From assembly GCF_004010195.1 (NCBI RefSeq), contig NC_057718.1, positions 53,101,593 through 53,134,693 on the forward strand: a DNA stretch of 33,101 nucleotides, written 5' to 3'. Shown in pieces: positions 1-33,101 of this stretch; within the stretch, counting starts at the first letter, position 1; the number at the start of each line of letters is the position of its first letter. Under the pieces are notes generated by a model. It did not search any database. It was given only the letters and a program-made list of their open reading frames with translations, and was not told the DNA's origin. A program made the position numbers and the translations under genes. Source of the stretch: Chiloscyllium plagiosum (lineage: Eukaryota).

Positions 1-240
1 GGGGAGAGAGTAGCATAGAGTACAATGGGTGACTGGGGGAGGAGATGAAGGTGATCACCCATTGTACTCTATGCTACTCTCTCCCCACCCCCACCCTCCC
101 CTAGCTTATCTCTCCACGCTGCAGGCTCTCTGCCTTTATTCCTGATGAAGGGCTTTTGCCCGAAACGTCGATTTTGCTGAAGCTCCTCGATGCTGCCTGA
201 ACTGCTGTGCTCTTCAAGCACCATTGATCCAGTACCTGCA
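1..240 (+). mobile_element. Penelope-like element terminus (pLTR) in a head-to-head inverted pair; left arm runs off the window
   Basis: 1-32 is the exact reverse complement of 55-86. The right arm continues into CTGATGAAGGGCTTTTGCCCGAAACGTC and a GATGCTGCCTGA-x-CTGCTGTGCT tail like the copies at 18345, 22460 and 26890. Confidence 0.85.
142..169 (+). ncRNA. Minimal type I hammerhead ribozyme core
   Basis: CUGAUGA (142-148), stem II GGGC-UUUU-GCCC, GAAAC, then GUC cleavage triplet; palindromic ACGU in place of stem III. Confidence 0.8.
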
Positions 241-660
241 TCTTGTGTCCATTTTATCAAGTTCTGATGGCTTATCAATTAGGAGTATTATCAATCTCTC
301 GAATATTTCCTCTTTATCAATTTTTAGCCAAATCATGTCCTGACTATGTTTTTTTTCACAATTACTTTCGTAACATCTTCTTCCTTGACGATGACGGATG
401 CAAAGTTTTCACTTTATAACTCATCCATGCCATCTGTGTCCATGCATAAATCTCATATTTAGTTCGTGATTGCTCCTCCTCATCGTGGAACATACTTTTA
501 GTCATGAAAAGTGGCATCCTCATCATGTTACTAGTAAGTTGGATAACATTCTTCTGGACGATATCCAGACTGGTTGCCACAAGAGTCATCTTCAGTTCGC
601 AACTATTGTAAGTAGCAATATCAGCCCTGCAGATTGTTTCTGATGCTCATCCCTTGTTCT
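241..660 (-). mobile_element. Old CR1 LINE ORF2 fragment (region between endonuclease and RT)
   Basis: Minus-strand translation gives DEL*SENFASVIVKEED and IDKEEIFERLIILLIDKPSELDKMDTR, resembling CR1 LNEYFASVFTxED and LKxDKSPGPDxIHPR. The upper boundary is approximate. Confidence 0.6.
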
Positions 661-812
661 AGAGGTTAAATAGGACCATCTGCCCAATGACAATTTAGCC
701 TAAAGCCAATTCATATTGCTTGAAATTTCTCCACCGACATTATCAGAACCAACATATACAGTTAAAAATCACACAACACCAGGTTATAATCCAACAGGTT
801 TAATTGGAAGCA

Positions 813-847
813 CACTAGCTTTCGGAGCGACGCTCCTTCATCAGGTG
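813..847 (-). ncRNA. Minimal type I hammerhead ribozyme (mirror copy)
   Basis: Exact reverse complement of 865-899. Confidence 0.8.
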
Positions 848-864
848 ATAGTGGAGGGCTCTAT

Positions 865-899
865 CACCTGATGAAGGAGCGTCGCTCCGAAAGCTAGTG
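865..899 (+). ncRNA. Minimal type I hammerhead ribozyme
   Basis: CAC-CUGAUGA-A-GGAGC(GUC)GCUCC-GAAAG-CUA-GUG: intact core, 5-bp stem II, 3-bp stem I, AGCU palindrome at stem III; predicted cleavage after 896. Confidence 0.8.
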
Positions 900-1002
900 T
901 GCTTCCAATTAAACCTGTTGGACTATAACCTGGTGTTGTGTGATTTTTAACTTTGTACACCCCAGTCCAACACCGGCATCTCCGAATCATAACATATACA
1001 GT

Positions 1003-1465
1003 GTCATACAGTCCTATAGTTGTACAGCACAGAAACAAACCCTTCGGTCCAAGTCATGCAGACCAGATATTCTAAATAAATCTACAGCATTTGGCCCATA
1101 TTCCTCTGAACCCTTCCTATTAATGTACCCATCCAGATGCTTTTGTTGTAATTGTATAAGCTTCCACCACCTCCTCTGGCAGCTCATTCCATACACGCAC
1201 CACTCTCTGTATAAAAGTTGCCCTTTACATTGTTTGTAAATATTTCCTTTCTCACCCAAAACCTATACCCTCTAGTTTTGGATCCCATAAGCCTGGGAAA
1301 AAGACTTTGGCTATTCACCCTATCCACCCCCCTCATGATTGTAGGAACCTTTATAAGGTCACCCCTCAGCCACCAACAATCAAGAGAAAATAGCTTCTGT
1401 CTATCAGCCTCTCCCTTTAGCTCAAACCCTCCAACCAGGCAATGTCCTTATAAATCTTTTCTATA
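1003..1465 (-). mobile_element. CR1/HER1-type LINE 3' end
   Basis: Homologous to the + strand copy at 31630-31938 (ORF2 C-terminus with HLDGYxNRKGxExYGP, 3' UTR and short-repeat tail). Confidence 0.85.
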
Positions 1466-2139: not shown

Positions 2140-3310
2140 TAGTATAATACGGTTTCAACATGTTCACATGACATACGCAATACCTTTTTTATCTATCTGG
2201 CATCTTTACCAAATAGTCCACCTGACTCAACTTTTTCTCAATTTGATAGGGACTACTAAGCCTGGCTTTGAAAGAATCTCCTGATGCTGGTAACAATACT
2301 AACACATTATTCCCTTGGGAAAACGTTCAAGTCTCAGATCTGCCACTTCCTTCATTCTATACTCTTTAGGAACTGTTTAGCTAACTCACCTACACTATTT
2401 AATCTCTTTCTCACCTCCAATACATAATCTATGTGTGAGATCTCTGACTTTGGTCGTGTCAATTTTTCTTTAATTAATTTAAAAGGACCTCTCAGTTCAG
2501 GCCCAAATATTAACTCGAAGGGAGTAAACTGAGTAGATTTGTTTGGGGCATCTCTCATGGCAAATAATACGAATGGGATACCATTACCCCAATCATTTGG
2601 GTAAACCTGACCGTATGGTCTCAATATGGTCTTCAAGGTCTGATGCCACTCTTCTAAAGCTCCCTGGGATTCAGGATGATACACACTGGATTTAAAGTGC
2701 TGTGTACCTAAGTATCCATAACCTCCTTCAACGGTCTAGCAGTAAACTTAGACGCTTGGTCTGACTGAATCTCTCTGGGTAGCCCATACCGTGTGAAGAA
2801 AGCTACTAATTCCTCTACTACCCTTTTTGCCTTGATACTCCGTAATGGAATTGCCTCTGGAAATCTGGTAGACACACCCATCATGGTTAACAAGTACTGG
2901 TTCCCACGTTTAGTTCTTGGAAGGGGACTTACAGAATCAATTATAACCCACGTGAAAGGTTCTTCAAATGTGGGAATTGGCAACAAAGATGCTGGTTTTA
3001 TTACCGCCTGTGGCTTACCTACCATTTGACATGTATGACACATACAGCAAAAGTTAACCACATTTTTGTGCATTCTAGGTCAATAAAAATGTTTTTGTAC
3101 CTTAGCCTGAGTCTTTCATACCCCTAGGTGATCTCCTAAAGGTGGTTCATGTGCTACCCCTAACACACCTGTCTGTATGCTACTGGCAATACAATCGGAC
3201 CATTTCTCCTCTGCACTAACCTGCCATGATCTCCACTTCTGTCTTAGGATTCTATCTTTTGGATAATAACCCTCTGGAATATTCTCAGCCTCTTCTTGCT
3301 GTTGCAAGTC
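2140..3310 (-). pseudogene. Gypsy integrase (HHCC zinc finger, DDE core, GPY/F-like C-terminus), frameshifted
   Basis: AHEPPLGDHLGV, CCMCHTCQ, WVIIDSVSPLP, IQSDQASKF, YHPESQGALEEWHQTLK, TPFELIFG, CHVNMLKPY. Confidence 0.9.
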
Positions 3311-3544
3311 TCTTAGCCTCTGTCTGTTCAGGCTTTTCCTGCACCATTACATCAAACAGGGTGTCTGCAAACTGAGCCTCCATTCCTTCATCTTTCTCTT
3401 TACTTTTCACTTCGTGCTGTGACTTGTGATAATGGGATCTGGTTACTGCACAATCTGGAAAAATACCAGGATATTTCTGTTTTAACTCCTCAATTTCTTG
3501 TTTTCCTTGGGCTTCGCCACAACAAGGGGTGTCACTCCCACATA

Positions 3545-3800
3545 GGATCCTGCCAAATCATTCCCAAGAACAAACTGAATTCCTGGAACTGACACTCTGC
3601 CAATCACTCACACTGTATCTTCCCCAGTCTTGAGTTGCCACTCCAACTTGATCTTACATCGACAAACGGTAACTTTCTATCCATCTGTCCCACAAATTAC
3701 CACACTCTCAGGTAACAGATCAGAAAGAGTGCATATTTGCTTGTCTCTTACTATCAGCGACTGGTTAGAAAGTATATCTCTCAAAATTATAACTTCTTAT
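3545..3800 (-). pseudogene. Degenerate retroviral-type aspartic protease
   Basis: VIILRDILSNQSLIV (decayed LRDTG motif) and downstream QFVLGNDLAG. Confidence 0.65.
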
Positions 3801-5217
3801 CCTTTTTCCCCTGTTCTTTCTGAATAAACTTTATACACAAGGGCAAATTCTTTGTAGAGGTCAGGTACTAACTCCGTACCCAGCCCCTGCCTAGGCTGTG
3901 CACTCTCCTGCAGCTCTTCGGCTCTTCTTGGGGTCTCCTTTACTACCTTCACTAATGCCGCTGGCTTGGCTTCTTTTACCACATCTTTTCCCATGGTGCC
4001 TTTCTTTAATGACCAGCACTGTGACTTTACATGTCCCACTTTACCACAGTAGAAACACCTGAGGCCTTTCACCTCCTTTCCACCCTCTTGGGCTTCTTTT
4101 TTTATCCTGTGGCAAATTCTTACCAGTGCTCTCTACCCCTGGTTTAGTATTGTAGGATCTCCCCTTCTCCCAATTTCTATACCTCACAGGACGAAATTCT
4201 GGCCAGAAGCTTGTCTTATGCACCAACATATATTCATCTGCTAGTTCTGCTGCCATTCTCTCTTTCTGAACTTTCTGTTCCTCCACATGAATTCTTACCA
4301 TCTCTGGAAGTAAGTTTTTAAACTCCTCCTGAAGCATAATCTCTTGTAGAGCCTCAGAGGTCCTATCTATTTTCAAAGCACACACCCATCTATCAAAACG
4401 ACTATGTTTAATTATTTCAAACTAAACAAAAGTCTGACCTGTTTCTAAACCGCTGTTTATATGCTTCTGGTACCAATTCATAAGCACTTAACCGCTACAT
4501 AATCTCTTCACCCCTCCGCTGACAGTGCGGCAAATACCTCACGAGCTGTGCCTACCAGTTTAGTCTGAATTAGCATTGCCCATAAATCCTCAGATCACTC
4601 CATCTGCCCAGCCAATTTTTCAAATGAAATAAACAAGGCTTCAACATCATTCTCATCAAAATGTGGTGGAGTTTTGACATGTTTGTATATATCACTACCT
4701 TCTCTTTTAATTTCCATCTTGTTGACTTCACATTGCTGACTAAGTCGCAACTTCTCAAATTCAAATGCTCTCTCTTTTTGCTCAGCTTAGAAGCTTCTCT
4801 CTCTTTCTTTTCTCTCTCTCTCTCTTCTCTCTCTTCTCTCTCTCTTTCTCCCTCCCTTTATTCTCTCTCTCTTTTCTCAGCCAAGAAACTTCTCTCCTTC
4901 TCTTTTTCCTCTCTCTCCCCTTCTCTTTCTCTCTCCCCCTCTCTCTTTCCTTTCTCTCTCTTTGTTTATGTTCTAACTCCATTTTCCTTAATTGTAATCT
5001 AAGTTTTTCTATCTCTACTGCACTTGTCTGTTTCTCTGACACCTGTTTTTGAGTAATTCCCTTACAATTTCATCTTTACTTTTGTCCTTGATTAAACTTA
5101 ATCTAACTTATTTGCTAATTCTAAAAGTATGGCCCTATTCTTTCCTTCAAAACTTTCTTGCCAAATCTGAGAATCATCTTCAAATCCCAGAACCTCTTTA
5201 ACAATTTTAAGATCCAT
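3801..5217 (-). pseudogene. Gag polyprotein (E/R/K coiled coil, SCAN-like capsid region, CCHC zinc knuckle), frameshifted
   Basis: ATG at 5217 (MDLKIVKEVLGF), LSAYELVPEAYKQRFR, EIMLQEEFKNLLPEMVRIHVEE...AAELADEY, CFYCGKVGHVKSQC. Confidence 0.85.
4765..4960. repeat. CT-rich imperfect microsatellite inside gag
   Basis: Long (CT)n/CTT tract encoding the ERERK-rich segment on the minus strand. Confidence 0.9.
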
Positions 5218-6190: not shown

Positions 6191-6350
6191 CTTATACACT
6201 TAATGTCAAGATCCTAGGGAGTGTTGCTGAACAAAGAGACATTGGGAGTGCAGGTTCATAGCTCCTTGAAAGTAAAGTTGCAAGTAGATAGGATAGTGAA
6301 CAAGGCATTTATTATGCTTTCCTTGATTGGTTAGAGCATTGAGTAGAGTT
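6191..6350 (+). mobile_element. CR1 LINE, continuation of 1466-1902
   Basis: Resumes where the left part stops (YTLNVKILGSVAEQRD); the same junction is uninterrupted in the minus-strand copy at 8445-8635. Confidence 0.88.
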
Positions 6351-7358
6351 CAAAGCTTGTGAGAAGATTTGTAGCTCGGGTGCTCATTGTTGTGGTTCTG
6401 TTCGTCGAGCTGGGAATTTGTGTTGCAGACGTTTCATCCCCTGTCTAGGTGACATCCTCAGTGCTTGGGAGCCTCCTGTGAAGCGCTTCTATAATGTTTC
6501 CTCTGGCATTTATAGTGGTTTGTCTCTGCCACTTCCGGTTGTCAGTTCCAGCTGTCCGCTGCAGTAGCCGGTATTATGGGTCCTGGTCGATGTGTTTGTT
6601 GATAGAATCTGTGGATGAGTGCCATGCCTCTAGGAATTCCCTGGCTGTTCTCTGTTTGGCTTGTCCTATAATAGTAGTGTTGTCCCAGTTGAACTCATGT
6701 TACTTGTCATCTGCATGTGTGTCTACTAAGGATAGCTGCTCGTGTCGTTTCGTGGCTAGTTGGTGTTCATAGATACAGATTGTTAACTGTCTTCCTGTTT
6801 GTCCTATGTAGTGTTTTGTGCAGTCCTTGCATGGGATTTTGTATACTACGTTGGTTTTACTCATGCTGGGTATCGGGTCCATTGTCCTGGTGAGTTGTTG
6901 TCTGAGAGTGGCTGTTGGTTTATGTGCTGTTATGAGTCCTAGTGGTCATAGTAGTCTGGCTGTCAGTTCAGAAGTGTTCTTGATGTATGGTAACGTGGCT
7001 AGTCCTTTGGGTTGTGGCATGTCCTCATTCCATTGTCTTTCCCTTAGGCATCTGTTGATGAAATTGCGGGGCTATCCGTTTTTGGCGAATACATGTAGAG
7101 GTGTTCTTCTTCCTCTTTTTGTAGTTCTGATGTGCTGCAGTGTGTTGTGGCCCTTTTGAACAGTGTCTTGATGCAACTTCTTTTGTGTGTGTTGGGGTGG
7201 TTGCTTTCGTAGTTCGGGACTTGGTCTGTGTGTGTGGCTTTCCTGTATACCTTTGTGGTGAATTCTCTGTTCGGTGTTCTCTGTACCATCACGTCTAGGA
7301 ATGGGAGTTGGTTGTCCTTTTCTTCCTCTCTAGTGAATCGGATTCCTGTGAGTGTGGC
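6351..7358 (-). mobile_element. Penelope/Poseidon-type PLE, 5'-truncated (RT thumb, GIY-YIG endonuclease, pLTR)
   Basis: LPFLDVMVQR...KVYRKATHTDQ...NHPNTHKRSCIKTLFKRA, and NVVYKIPCKDCTKHYIGQTGRQL...EH (GIY-YIG). Confidence 0.9.
6425..6464 (-). ncRNA. Minimal type I hammerhead ribozyme
   Basis: Minus strand GCA-CUGAGGA-UGUCACC(UAGACA)GGGGAU-GAAAC-GUC-UGC; 3-bp stem I GCA/UGC, imperfect stem II. Confidence 0.7.
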
Positions 7359-8370
7359 ATGGACCTAACAAGGGATTACGGAGGGAATGGTCTCTGCAGA
7401 ATGCAGATAGGGATGGGGAGGGAATTATATCTGGTAGTGGAGTCTGTTTGTAGGTGGTGGAAATGGCAAAGGATGGGTTGTATCCGAAGGTTGGTGGGGT
7501 TGAAGTTGAGGACATGGGGCGTTCTAGCCTTGTTGTGATTTGAGTGGTGGGGTTCAAGCGTGAAGGTGTGAGAAGTGGATGAGATACGCTGCAGGGCATT
7601 GTTGACCATGTGCCAGGGAGAGGGAATTGTAGCCTTTGAAGAAGGAGGCCATCTGGGAGCTGATGTGGCTGAGGCAGAGGAATTAGGAGTAAGAGATAGC
7701 ATTTTTACAGGAGGGGAGGTGGGAGGAGGTGTAGCCCAGGGTAGCTGTGGGAATCAGTGGGTTTGCAGTAGATATCTATGTTGAGCCGTTTGCTGGAAAT
7801 GGAGAAGGAAAGGTCCAGGAAGGTGAAGGAGGTGTCCAAGATGATCCAGGTGAACTTGAGGTCAGAGTGGAAGTTGTTCGTGAAGTTGATGAACTGTTCA
7901 ACCTCCACATGGGAGCACAAAGTGGCACCAATATAGTCATTAATGCAATGGGGGAAAAGGTGGGGAATACTGCCAGTGTAACTACGGAAGATGGACTGTT
8001 CCACATACCTGAAGAAGAGGCATCCATAGCTGGGGCCCGTGCAGGTCCCAATGGCTACCCCTTTGGTCTGAAGGAAGTGGGAAGATTAGAAGGCGAAGTT
8101 GTTGAGGGTGAGGACCATTCAGCAAATTGAATGAGTGTTTCAGTGGAGGGGTACAGGCTGGGTCGGTGGGAGAGGAAGAAACCCGAGGGCTTGGAGGCTT
8201 TCGTCATGGTGGATGGACATGTACCCAGACTGGATGTCCATAGTGAAGATAGGACAATGGAGGCGCAGGAAACAGAAGTCATGGAGGAGGTGGAGGGTAT
8301 GGGTGATGTCCTGAATGTATGGGGGGACTTCCTGGACTAAGGGGACAGGATGGTGTCAAGGTATGAGGAA
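7359..8370 (-). mobile_element. Second PLE family (Neptune-like) RT fragment
   Basis: Decayed GPSYGCLF, CINDYIG (YIDD region), LKFTW, FLDLS, DIYCKPTDSHSY; homologous to 17241-17780 on the + strand. Confidence 0.85.
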
Positions 8371-8444
8371 ATACCTGACCAAGAAAAAGTATGCCTAACA
8401 TCTTCAATATCCTATCTACCTGTGACTCCAACATCAAGGAACAA

Positions 8445-15898: not shown

Positions 15899-15987
15899 TT
15901 AAAATCACCAGGTTGTAGTCCAACAGGTTTAATTGGAAGCAGTAGTATTCGGAGCGCTGCTCCTTCATCAGGCATCTCCAAATCATG
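15899..15987 (+). mobile_element. Collapsed copy of the 763-990 palindrome family
   Basis: Left arm CACCAGGTTGTAGTCCAACAGG...GCTCCTTCATCAGG is joined directly to the terminal tail GGCATCTCCAAATCAT; the right arm is missing. Confidence 0.75.
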
Positions 15988-17154: not shown

Positions 17155-17240
17155 AGTTCTGATAAAGGTCAATGGAGCTGAAAGGTTAATTCTGTTTTCT
17201 CTCCACAGATGTTGCCAGACCTGCTGAGTTTCTTCAACAA
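17155..17240 (+). mobile_element. PLE terminus fragment with decayed hammerhead (23220-family)
   Basis: CTGATAAAGGTCAATGGAGCTGAAAGGTTAA...TTCTCTCCACAGATGTTGCCAGACCTGCTGAG matches 23322-23400. Confidence 0.7.
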
Positions 17241-18464
17241 ACACCTGCCACCTTGACCTCAAGTTCACCTGGACCATCTCGGACACCTCCCTCCCCTTCC
17301 TGACCTCTCTGTCTCCATTTCCAGCGACCGACTCAACACAGACATCTATTTCAAACTCACCGACTCCCACAGCGACCTGGACTACACCCTCTCCCACCCC
17401 CTGCTCCTGGAGAAATGCTATCCCTTACTCCCAATTCCTCCACCTTTGCCATATCTGCTCCCAGGAGGATCACTTCCAACAAAGCCTTCCAGTGCATCTT
17501 CTGCACTTCCTGCACCTTTGCCTGGAACCTCACCCCTCCAACCGCAACAAGGACAGGACCTCCCTCATCCTCATCTTCCATCCGGATAAGTGCATCATTC
17601 TGTGTCATTTCTGTCACTTACAATCAGACCCCACCACCAGAGATATGTTTCCCTCCCTAGCCCTATCAGCATTCCGCAGAGACTATTCCCTCCGCGACTC
17701 CCTCGTTAGGTCCATGCCCCCCACCAACCCATCCTCCACTCCTAGCACCTTCCCTTGTCATCACAAGAGGTGTAAAACTTGAACCCACACCACTCCCCTC
17801 ACCTCCACAGTTGGCAAAGGATCCTTCCACATCCGGCATAGAATTTCCTGCGCATCCAAACACCTCATCTACTGCGTCCGTTTCTCCTCTAAATTGGGGA
17901 TACAGGGCACCAACTTGTGGAATAATTCAGGGAAATATCTGGGACACACGCAGTAAACAACCCCCCCCCCCCCCCCCGCCCTGTGGCCAATCACTTCAAA
18001 TCCCCCTCCCACTCCGCCAAGAACATGCATGTCCTGGGCCTCCTCCAAATCCAAGCCACCCGATGCCTGGAGGAGGAAAGCCTCATCTTCTGCATTGGGA
18101 TCCTCCAACCACACAGTATCAATGTCGGTTTCCTCATTACTCCTTCCCCCACCTTAGCTCAGTTCCAATCCTCCAACTTGGCACAGTCCTACCTGTCCAT
18201 CTTCCTTCCCACCTATCCGCTCCACCCTTTGCTCCATCACAATCACCCCTCACTTACATTTACTTATCATCTTCCCAACTACATTCCCCCCATCCCCACC
18301 CACCCCCGCTTCTTTTTATCTCTCAGCCCCCTTCTCCCCCTATATTCCTGATGAAGGGCTTATGCCCAAATCGTCGATTCTCCTGCACCTCGGATGCTGC
18401 TTGACCTGCTGTGCTTTTTCAGCACCACATGTGATCTCCAGCGTCTGCAATCCTCACTTTCTCT
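17241..18464 (+). mobile_element. Neptune-like PLE, 5'-truncated, with pLTR and tail
   Basis: LKFTWTISDTSLPFL...DIYFKLTDSH, AFRRDYSLRDSLVRS, decayed GIY-YIG region and ANHF; terminal CTGATGAAGGGCTTATGCCC at 18348 with GAAAC mutated to AAATC. Confidence 0.88.
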
Positions 18465-21499: not shown

Positions 21500-21580
21500 A
21501 AAATGTGGAGTTGGAAAAGCACAGCAGGTCAGACAGCATCTGAGGAGCAGGAAAGTCGGCGTTTCGGACCAAAAGTCCTT
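21500..21580 (-). mobile_element. Isolated inverted PLE arm
   Basis: AAAATGTGGAGTTGGAAAAGCACAGCAGGTCAGACAGCATC...GTTTCGG matches the left arms at 22389 and 32929; truncated inside the hammerhead. Confidence 0.75.
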
Positions 21581-22388: not shown

Positions 22389-22583
22389 GTTGAAAAATGT
22401 GGTGCTGGAAAAACACAGCAGGCCAGGCAGCATCCGAGGAGCAGGAGAATCGATGTTTCAGGAAGGGCTTATGCCCGAAATGTCGATTCTCCTGCTCCTC
22501 AGATGCTGCCTGGCCTGCAGTGTTTTTCTAGCACCACATTTTTCAACTCTGGTACTCCAGCATCTGCAGTCCTCACTTTCTCT
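22389..22583 (+). mobile_element. Palindromic PLE-terminus insertion with the hammerhead CUGANGA core missing at the centre
   Basis: Inverted arms ~22386-22462 and ~22474-22550, tail 22551-22583, direct repeat TAATTTGTGCAAGA at 22375-22388 and 22584-22597. Confidence 0.9.
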
Positions 22584-23219: not shown

Positions 23220-23452
23220 TCACAAACAAAGATTGCTGGAAAGGCTCAGCAGGTCTGGCAGCATCTGAGAAGAGAAATCAGAGTTAACATTTCCGATCCA
23301 GTGACCCTTCCTCAGACCCTTTTGAGGAAGGGTCACTGGATCTGAAATGTTAACCCTGATTTCTCTCCACAGGTGCTGCCAGACCTGCTGAGCTTTTCCA
23401 GCAATTTCTGTTTTGGTTTCTGATTTATAGCATCTGCTGTTCTTTTAGTTTT
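23220..23452 (+). mobile_element. Palindromic PLE-terminus insertion, third family
   Basis: Inverted arms ~23222-23315 and ~23322-23415 with (C/U)UGAGGA-AGGGUC(ACUG)GAUC-GAAAU-GUU cores, tail to 23452, direct repeat CATTTCAGGG at 23210-23219 and 23453-23462. Confidence 0.9.
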
Positions 23453-26787: not shown

Positions 26788-27014
26788 CAGAGAGTGTGGT
26801 GCTGGAAAAGCACAGTAGGTCAGGCAGCATCCAAGGAGCGGGAGAATTGATGTTTCAGGCATAAGCCCTTCTTCAGGAATGAGCTCATTCCTGATGAAGG
26901 GCTTATGCCTGAAACTTCAATATTCCTGATCCTTGGATGCTGCCTGACCTACTGTGCTTTTCCAGCACCACATTCTCGACTCTGATCTCCAGCATCTGCA
27001 GACCTCACTTTCTT
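26788..27014 (+). mobile_element. Palindromic PLE-terminus insertion with no spacer
   Basis: Centre CAGGAATGAG|CTCATTCCTG at 26883/26884, arms ~95 bp, tail ~26981-27014, direct repeat CCACAGTAAGGT at 26776-26787 and 27015-27026; hammerhead cores at 26891 (+) and 26876 (-). Confidence 0.92.
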
Positions 27015-29600: not shown

Positions 29601-30464
29601 GACATTTATTGCCTTGTTGATGATGCTCCTTTCTACTGAAGTTCTGGAATTGTTCTTTTCTGCAGAGGGGCAGCCTAATGCTGATGTATGTGTGCAACTA
29701 TTTCCAAGAGATGAATTTATAAAATGTCACAGATGGATGGGAAAGGGAGAATTTCAATTTGTCATCTTCCCCTTCATGAGACTTCAATAGTTTGAGTTCT
29801 GGAGGATTGCTTCCTCAATCAGTTTCCTTGATCAGTTCGCCCTGCTGTGTGAAGCTGTAATCCACTCTATGAATGCAATTGCCTTCTAAACAGCTGATAA
29901 GGAATCATGTGTTATTGGATGCACAGTTAAGCTGAGTCTGCACCTCAGCATGGAGTAAATTTGGTCCCATCATCCACTTTAAATGTAGAGATCTATTGGA
30001 CCAGCTGAGTGCAGTGTAGCAGAATATATTCCATATCCTGCTCTAACTAGAAGACAATTTGTACAAATCAAGGTGTAGCCAGTAATTACAGGTTATGATG
30101 GACGGTGTTATAGAGATTGTGAGAAGGACAGAATGGGAGGTCTTTCTCATCTAAGATCCTCAGCTATCTGCCACCAAGTCAATATGACATTCTTCATTGT
30201 GAACAGCACTTAAGACACTCCTCAGTTTAACCCCTTCAGACCATTGCACCATTTGTAAACTTTTGCTCTATGATTCTTTTCTATTATTAATAATACACAG
30301 TTGTGCATATAATTACACATTCCTGTTTCCTCTCTTCCCCATAAATCTGAAACATCAAAATTCAGGTAAGCACGAGTTTTCATTATTGTCCCAGAACATG
30401 TTTTCTTCAGACTTGGAAGACTGAGCGATCTCTGGGTTGAAAACTGTTGACCTTCTGACAAGGT

Positions 30465-30680
30465 CAGAAGTCAGATGACACCAGGTTAATTTCCAACAGA
30501 TTTGTTTGAAATCATAGGGGTTTGGAGTGCTGTTCCTTCATCCGTTGACTAGCTACCTGACAAAAGAGCAACGATCCAAAAGCATGCACTTCCAAATAAA
30601 TCTGTTGCACTATAACCTGGTATTGTGTGATCTTTAACATTGACCACCTCAGTCCAACAGCGGCACTTCCACATCCTAAT
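30465..30680 (+). mobile_element. Old, diverged palindrome related to 763-990
   Basis: CACCAGGTTA...CCAACAGATTT...CCTTCATC, then CCTGACAAAAGAGC...AATCTGTTG...TAACCTGGT plus tail CAGTCCAACAGCGGCACTTCCACATC; hammerhead cores decayed. Confidence 0.75.
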
Positions 30681-31938: not shown

Positions 31939-32928
31939 GTAAGTATTTTCAAGACTAGTCTAATTCAACTATAATTTGACTTAGTAAGGAAATAAATACC
32001 AACACTCACGAGTTAGTTGAAGTATCTTAAAAATTAAGCTTTACTCTGTATGACTTTCAAAAACTGTTAACAGGTACAAGAAGATTAATGATTGCACATT
32101 AATTAGGTAACATTGAACCCCAGCAAAATAGCAATCCATTCTCAATGAAAATTATTATATGATCTTTTGACAAACAAAACTCACAGATCCTTTCCAAGTT
32201 TCACAATGTTCCCTTTTTTTGGATGATTACTAATTGCTTATACAATGTCATTTCCAAGCATCATAAATACCCAATTTTTAGAAATTACAAATTTCCTTTT
32301 TAACCATGTCCTAGTTTCTTGAAGTTGCCTGTATCCTAGTTTCCTGCATTTACAAACCCTTGGTCATTTACTGCCATCTTCACAGCTCTGAAAGAAGCTT
32401 AATATTTCAAACATTTTTGTAAGTATAGTCGCGATTATTTTTCCATCCTAATTCAAAATTCACCACCATTCCCCTGCCTCCTCCTGAGCCCAAATAATAG
32501 TTTTTCAGATTAGACAGTGTTTAAAATTTTCTTAATTGTGCCTAATCTGTCTCTGTTCAGTGTAATCACAGGCATTGTTAACAGTTGAATGTCTGCAATA
32601 AAATCCACCCCATACCTGACTTTATAAGCAAAGGCACCATGCTCATTTTATGGCATATATCCTGCTTGTAGGAATGCATCACACAAACACTTCAGGCTAA
32701 TTATCTATTAAGTGCTTGCTCAAACAGGCAAGCTGTTTTCCACTTCCTTAACCATTGTGTTCTCATAAAGGTCAAGTTGTAAAATTCAACAGTGGTCAAT
32801 TTGACTTAATTCCATTGTGTTTTATGTACATTCTCAAAGCCACAACTAGCATAACTATAGTCATGATAAAAATTAGAAATTGATTAGTTACATTGCCAAT
32901 CCAATTATATCAGGACATATTGTAAGTA

Positions 32929-33101
32929 GCTGAAAAATGTGTTGCTGGAAAAGCGCAGCAGGTCAGGCAGCATCCAAGGAGCAGGAGAATCGACATTTCG
33001 GGCATAAGCCCTTCTTCAGGAATGAGGAGCGTGTGCCAAGCAGGCTAAGATAAAAGATAGGGAGGAGGGACTTGGGGGAGGGGCGTTGGGAATGCGATAG
33101 G
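32929..33101 (-). mobile_element. Inverted PLE arm with hammerhead; element continues beyond the window
   Basis: Minus strand CUGAAGA-AGGGC(UUAU)GCCC-GAAAU-GUC at 33019-32992; same family as 22389 and 26788, and lacks the terminal tail as other left arms do. Confidence 0.85.

Follow-up and report, generated by a model that had tools for sequence, protein, structure and literature searches.

Short hairpin-shaped insertions in Chiloscyllium plagiosum are very probably dead-end products of PLE integration

Short hairpin-shaped derivatives of Penelope-like retroelements (PLEs) have entries in repeat databases, such as Chompy and Penelope1_Vert. The available part of one source names Chompy in a single table row and gives no description there (PMC7561263). 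As far as the available parts of the cited papers go, PLE insertions consist of an inverted pLTR, a duplication of 8-10 bp and a 31-bp tail on one end, and their palindromic junction has been ascribed to self-priming (PMC3846280). The typical PLE is described as carrying an inverted 5'-truncated copy and a one-sided tail of 30-40 bp (PMC8557442). It has also been reported that the PLE protein acts on both strands of the target, cutting and extending each, that the tail is the stretch between two internal RT start sites on the RNA, and that hammerhead cleavage is dispensable in vitro (PMC11167929). How PLEs make the inverted structures is still open (PMC8557442, PMC11167929).

We analysed a stretch of 33,101 nt from Chiloscyllium plagiosum (NC_057718.1, positions 53,101,593-53,134,693, forward strand), which is called the window below. 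Four hairpin-shaped insertions of 200-230 bases in this window are real. Their layout is already known from PLEs, and the element is an ordinary one, a set of short PLE insertion products. The four palindromes are very probably dead-end stubs made by PLEs, each of them built separately during the insertion of an autonomous element.

Anatomy and families of the insertions

As shown in Table 1, exact direct repeats abut all four insertions, with the lengths of 10-14 bp that an earlier note on this DNA had given. In a chance test using generous search windows, repeats of 10, 12 and 14 bp were obtained at random sites in 116, 44 and 11 of 20000 trials, respectively. Only these four have arms longer than 35 nt among the 18 inverted-repeat pairs found within 400 nt in the window. 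The aligned arms comprise 74-94 bases, as expected from the ~75-95 bp noted before, and they differ at 1 of 89 sites in 763-990, 6 of 74 in 22389-22583, 8 of 91 in 23220-23452 and 7 of 94 in 26788-27014. The tail is always on one side, and its length of about 33-41 nt is close to the 33-39 nt of the earlier note; the lengths in Table 1 are those of the local alignment, and the tail of 763-990 is reduced to 33 nt if the arm is extended to 957. A head-to-head inverted tail-less arm, a target-site duplication and a tail on one end only were present in 4/4 insertions. The target of insertion 1 is the edge of another high-copy repeat, with a short tract of near-repeated AT-rich words (991-1030).

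Table 1. Coordinates of the palindromic insertions and of a longer family A copy in the window
Feature	Position	Strand	Remarks
Insertion 1, left target-site duplication	751..762	+	12 bp, exact repeat at 991-1002
Insertion 1, inverted tail-less arm	763..851	-	intact minimal hammerhead, core at 844 (minus strand)
Insertion 1, centre	852..865	-	9-nt loop and next 5 nt; family's own upstream sequence, minus strand
Insertion 1, forward arm	861..949	+	hammerhead core 868, GAAA 889, predicted cut after 896
Insertion 1, poly(A) features of forward arm	861..949	+	signal 908-913, site ~926-928, GU-rich tract 929-948
Insertion 1, one-sided tail	950..990	+	41 nt, between the family's two 3' ends (~949-954 and 990)
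Insertion 1, right target-site duplication	991..1002	+	directly precedes another repeat starting ~1003
Insertion 2, family A	22389..22583	+	arms 22389-22462 and ~22463-22547; 36-nt tail; 14-bp duplication
Insertion 3, family B, related to A	23220..23452	+	arms 23224-23314 and 23323-23413; 39-nt tail; 10-bp duplication
Insertion 4, family A	26788..27014	+	arms 26790-26883 and 26884-26977; no loop; 37-nt tail; 12-bp duplication
Palindrome 5	30459..30680	+	much older, related to insertion 1 (72%), different centre; no hammerhead left
Palindrome 6, family A relative	1..232	+	cut by window start; arms 1-32 and 55-86; tail-less end near 232
5'-truncated longer copy of family A	17228..18464	+	broken RT C-terminal and GIY-YIG coding remnant at 17228-18132

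The division of the insertions into three distinct families stands loosely. Insertions 2 and 4 are one family (A), insertion 3 (family B) shares a block of 30-39 nt with family A at 79-90%, and the 763 family gave no match to families A or B. In the longer family A copy, the coding remnant was matched by tblastn with P0001 (E 4e-59) and P0016 (E 4e-28); the query proteins match RVT_1 and GIY-YIG, the latter above the cut-off in one of three. The ORF at 17228 has its closest protein relatives in sharks and rays, which marks the DNA as that of a shark-type genome. Beyond the remnant follow a 3' UTR, a hammerhead remnant at 18348 and a tail, and this 3' part matches insertions 2 and 4 at 79-80% over 122-127 nt. 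Since the RT/GIY-YIG remnant continues into a family A-type 3' end, family A is the 3' end of a protein-coding PLE. Neither a linked ORF nor a long copy was found within the window for the 763-990 family or family B; a PLE origin is probable for the former by its anatomy, and for the latter by its anatomy and its likeness to family A.

A pattern scan for further copies of the families yielded 0 loci in viral, metagenome and genome contigs. When 8 ORFs of the window were compared with Pfam, nothing was obtained for the PLE remnants and only rve and SCAN appeared below the cut-off. These matches mark a broken LTR-retrotransposon remnant at 2352-4421 (-), with its integrase (rve) and SCAN-like parts.

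Several other PLE pieces were seen in the window. At ~6350-7364 (-) there is a 5'-truncated PLE of a fourth family with an RT thumb and GIY-YIG remnant and an intact-looking hammerhead at 6461, for which no inverted arm was seen; an ATG stands at the start of helix II of this hammerhead, as described for the Anolis element. Directly upstream and in the same orientation lies another PLE RT remnant, whose protein is of the family A type (7363-8372, -). At 17159-17240 (+), a family B-like arm without a tail abuts the truncated RT remnant of family A in the same orientation, possibly as the result of a template switch or a nested insertion. Tail-less single arms were found at 32928-33101 (-), 15906-15972 (-) and 21500-21580 (-); the first exits the window and may belong to a longer palindrome as its inverted half, and the other two begin at or near the hammerhead and have no partner arm. 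By eye, the predicted cut site of family B is closely followed by a pyrimidine tract with a terminal CAG (23345-23370 + and 17185-17210 +), and this tract resembles a splice acceptor.

Hammerheads and the polyadenylation site

Each arm was scored for CUGANGA, helix II, GAAA, the palindromic 15.1-16.1, UH and helix I. A hammerhead on each strand, proposed for all four insertions, was found in 763-990, where all the features of a minimal hammerhead are present on both arms and both strands, but not in 22389-22583, 23220-23452 or 26788-27014. Insertion 26788-27014 has cores at 26891 (+) and 26876 (-) with GAAA on both strands, and the dimer palindrome is lost on both. In 23220-23452 a core exists on the minus strand only (23315), the plus arm is without the first core base, and the palindrome is likewise lost on both strands. 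No core followed by GAAA was found on either strand of 22389-22583, whose junction lies inside the hammerhead. The full feature set was present in 0 of the 6 arms of these three insertions. The related claim, that a sense hammerhead is present whichever strand is transcribed, holds as sequence for 763-990 only, and there its complement precedes it on both strands.

Transcripts of 763-990 from either strand are predicted to fold into one long hairpin (-170 and -178 kcal/mol). The predicted probability of helix II is 0.0 for the whole element as well as for each of the 8 prefixes computed, versus 0.63 for the forward arm with its tail and 0.88 for the motif alone, and imposing the hammerhead stems on the hairpin costs a predicted 66 kcal/mol. 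On these predicted folds, the hammerhead of 763-990 would be locked shut and inactive in the hairpin. For the minimal hammerheads of metazoan PLEs, the accessible text reports no cleavage by single motifs and little by dimers (PMC4209133), and each 763-990 transcript contains one sense copy only. An unconstrained cofold of two hammerhead copies gave no dimer fold and carries no weight as evidence. An Rfam search with E up to 1 gave 14 matches, which all scored under the gathering thresholds and included no hammerhead family; those to miRNAs were rejected, as they reflect the long hairpins. The RNA run showed no position with many molecule starts or ends, and its poly(A)-primed library is of a kind that cannot show hammerhead cleavage. 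The hammerheads are most likely passengers from the terminal repeat.

Of the RNA reads placed (4271), those ending in poly(A) or poly(T) numbered 302, 236 and 269 at positions 928, 784 and 790; a single run of a single sample underlies these counts, and about 2 in 100 of it was read. The reads are mostly 85-95% alike and therefore derive from the 763-990 family, not from this locus. Since the three positions are mirror-symmetric, they represent one poly(A) site at ~926-928. This site is located 13-15 nt past an ATTAAA (908-913) and before the GU-rich tract, at a place with no genomic A-run. It lies 30 nt past the predicted cut, with both 3' ends of the family still further downstream, so polyadenylated family RNA would be without both priming sites at its 3' end. 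No such poly(A) hexamer is present within the insertions of families A and B, and the pattern of poly(A) before the 3' end is therefore not general.

According to the available part of PMC2377424, the Penelope transcript starts inside the upstream pLTR. Taken together with the position of the poly(A) site, this suggests the 5' repeat as the place where reverse transcription begins, with the enzyme running off the RNA near the hammerhead, and such a run-off would explain the stereotyped size of the insertions. Read-through RNA is an alternative to priming on the 5' repeat.

In the palindrome, the poly(A) signal, the site and the GU-rich tract are present on both strands (908-948 and the mirror 764-804). 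A young copy, if unpaired, might act as a two-way terminator; if read through, it would make long double-stranded RNA.

Centres, the empty site and the origin of the palindromes

The earlier note had placed the fold-back at or just 5' of CUGANGA, which does not apply to 22389-22583, with its junction inside the motif, or to 1-232, whose centre is ~90-110 nt upstream of the core at 142. The ORF-less palindromic form is frequent here, with 6 palindromes in 33 kb. No centre is shared by two of these six (0), and it differs between the two family A insertions, between the two 763-type insertions and in the 1-232 copy. Palindrome 30459-30680 has arms differing at 27 of 80 sites and no duplication evident by eye.

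Next, contigs of three related organisms and one RNA run, 4 of 24 listed runs in all, were placed on window positions 1-1080 at 85% likeness. The run search listed no RNA run on record as a carrier of this sequence, and this has no bearing on expression. Among the 15 joints listed of 820, 10 connect the left with the right arm, and no two of these 10 share a position pair; each was found in one contig per run, 8 of the 10 in one run only, and many of them fall well inside the arms. The listed joints have 18-49 letters on their short side at 85% likeness, and some may be noise. Copies sharing the 763-990 centre make no joint and are thus uncounted in this tally. Identical centres at many loci had been named as the mark of propagation as a unit and scattered centres as that of independent formation: none is shared among the six palindromes of the window and the listed joints (15 of 820) are scattered, while same-centre copies are uncountable and one junction, 785/865, is deep. 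Since centres differ between copies of the same family, both in the window and in the contigs of related organisms, separate formation is favoured.

The contigs also inform on the ends of the 763-990 family. Loose ends into mixed flanks were found at 990 in 424, 1063 and 862 contigs and at 954 in 507 contigs (X14); the family therefore has two discrete 3' ends, about 36-41 nt apart. Contigs that match along the left arm keep matching across the loop as far as 865, where they turn together into a common upstream sequence (loose ends in 86 contigs of X2 and 103 of X12, agreement 0.72-0.73), so the loop is family sequence. Positions 861-865 both continue the loop and pair with 847-851, and this 5-nt microhomology is likely to reflect a self-priming snap-back. 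The centre of 26788-27014 is loop-free, with both arms stopping 7 nt before the core and no microhomology. Gene conversion between the arms of this insertion was rejected as the source of the variants common to both; a common source copy suffices, because the same variants are the majority in the family RNA reads and one is also present in the copy at 33019.

It is very unlikely that the palindrome propagates as a unit, that is, as a non-autonomous hairpin RNA of ~230 nt whose tail is recognised by a PLE protein and which is copied whole. In line with such copying, the insertions are of similar size across families, pLTR sequences suffice for mobilisation in trans (PMC3846280, available part), and the 785/865 junction, with 13 letters between, reaches a depth of 2589 in one contig, in X2 only, against ~13 for unique flank. 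Moreover, opposite-strand joints of the tail end to the tail-less end (954/990) occurred in 1, 7 and 8 contigs, as tandem units would give. However, contig depth is no copy number, and a satellite or some larger repeat may hold the deep junction. The six palindromes have no common centre and the listed joints (15 of 820) are scattered, the arm and hammerhead are predicted to be fully paired in either transcript, and in RNA of the 763-990 family the poly(A) site precedes both 3' ends. The self-propagating hairpin element offered by the earlier note as one of two readings finds no backing in these four insertions, three of which are without a full hammerhead and the fourth of which has it buried in the predicted fold. 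There is a similarly low probability that a minority of the palindromes is a protein-free mobile unit, copied whole by a PLE protein or amplified head to tail; the 785/865 junction and the 954/990 joints would then be its traces, and it would represent a hairpin-shaped PLE parasite distinct from tandem retrozymes.

To return to 763-990 itself, the match of unique-flank contigs ends exactly at 750, the base before the left duplication, in 3/3 organisms, and past 750 these contigs carry 57, 60 and 57 further letters. At a filled site the contig is expected to run on unbroken for up to ~39 letters; at an empty site it should resume at 991 and extend 30 letters beyond the last private base that precedes the next high-copy repeat. 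The empty-site ends so predicted, 1047 or 1050 given the differences at 1017 and 1020, fit exactly. We infer a clean empty site with a single target copy in the three organisms, the joint itself not being among the joints listed. Empty sites that keep one arm or miss the target sequence had been named as evidence against these insertions, and the site appears clean in all three. The flank of organism A differs from that of the window at 2 of 513 bases, and the 763-990 insertion is therefore very young or polymorphic. As a separate observation, in the flank contigs of organisms B and C the 390 and 397 letters ahead of 233 and 232, respectively, do not resemble the window, so the 1-232 palindrome is probably absent there.

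The youth of 763-990 bears on a further reading, in which the inverted PLE insertions were longer when they formed and afterwards lost sequence by deletion at the unstable centre of the hairpin. The lack of a core on both arms of 22389-22583, its asymmetric junction and the longer-armed copies at 1-232 and probably 32928-33101 are as this history would have it. Nevertheless, it is highly improbable: 763-990 is already short though very young (1 of 89 arm mismatches, and a site inferred to be empty in the organism with 2/513 flank differences), and single arms also start at the hammerhead (15971). Differences between centres could also arise after insertion by deletion of the hairpin tip, especially in 22389-22583. 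That the palindromes are fold-back artefacts of the assembly is extremely improbable, for although inverted PLE structures are known to trouble assemblies (PMC8557442, available part) and no placed contig spans 763-990 whole, the arms differ from each other at 1-8 sites, the tails are one-sided and exact duplications flank all four, features of the assembled sequence that argue against a fold-back, and comparable left-right junctions occur in contigs of three organisms. The readings as MITE or miRNA were rejected because of the asymmetric tail and the variable duplications of 10-14 bp.

We therefore prefer separate formation of the stubs during PLE insertion. The reading as stereotyped abortive PLE integrations, the other one offered by the earlier note, gains support from the published layout, from the link of family A to RT/GIY-YIG and from the differing centres. 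Two nicks 10-14 nt apart would each prime one cDNA, the RT start site nearer along the RNA giving the tail-less arm and the far site the arm with the tail. Both cDNAs would stop early, often near the 5' edge of the hammerhead, probably because the transcript is primed on its 5' terminal repeat, where the enzyme reaches the start of the RNA and runs off. Head-to-head joining of the two cDNA ends would follow, in 763-990 likely by a snap-back on the 5-nt microhomology. For this scheme, the anatomy, the two 3' ends of the family, the differing centres and the connection of family A to the coding remnant come from the present analysis; both-strand cutting and extension and the two internal RT start sites bounding the tail are taken from the literature. 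Many young ORF-less stubs allow direct counts of fold-back points, both 3' ends and duplication lengths. If the position of the poly(A) site means priming on the 5' repeat, the stubs would correspond, for PLEs, to first-strand products that ran off the template without a successful jump.

Comparison with described PLE systems

In a literature search with most subscription papers outside its scope, no paper was found on ORF-less palindromic PLE stubs in sharks, nor any on a pLTR whose poly(A) site precedes the tail. The comparisons below refer to the available parts of the cited works.

The closest system is the insertion unit of endonuclease-positive (EN+) PLEs (Arkhipova et al. 2013, PMC3846280; Craig et al. 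2021, PMC8557442). It has the same head-to-head inverted copy, the same tail of 30-40 nt on one end, the same duplication of ~8-14 bp and a junction palindrome consistent with self-priming. In that unit the inverted copy adjoins an ORF or captured DNA, whereas here the insert consists of two arms and has no ORF.

In the in vitro work on the Poseidon PLE of Anolis (Frangieh et al. 2024, PMC11167929), the same two discrete 3' ends bound the tail and lie downstream of a minimal hammerhead. By analogy, both arms would result if the two strands were cut and extended as in Poseidon. The available part of that study does not reconstruct the inverted product, and the present families, compared here by sequence, may be of another clade.

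With the minimal type I hammerheads of metazoan PLEs (Cervera and de la Pena 2014, PMC4209133), 763-990 shares CUGANGA, one extra base, helix II and GAAA, as well as the palindromic 15.1-16.1, UH and a short helix I. The active form described there is a dimer of two sense copies, whereas the 763-990 transcript has one sense copy behind its complement.

Finally, the non-LTR retrozymes (bioRxiv 10.64898/2026.07.22.740005) are likewise ORF-less, PLE-derived, hammerhead-bearing and a few hundred bases long. An identity with them was rejected, since the insertions described here have one sense motif per strand, head to head. Retrozymes are head-to-tail tandems with two consecutive sense hammerheads, whereas those found in C. 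plagiosum are dispersed head-to-head palindromes with target duplications.
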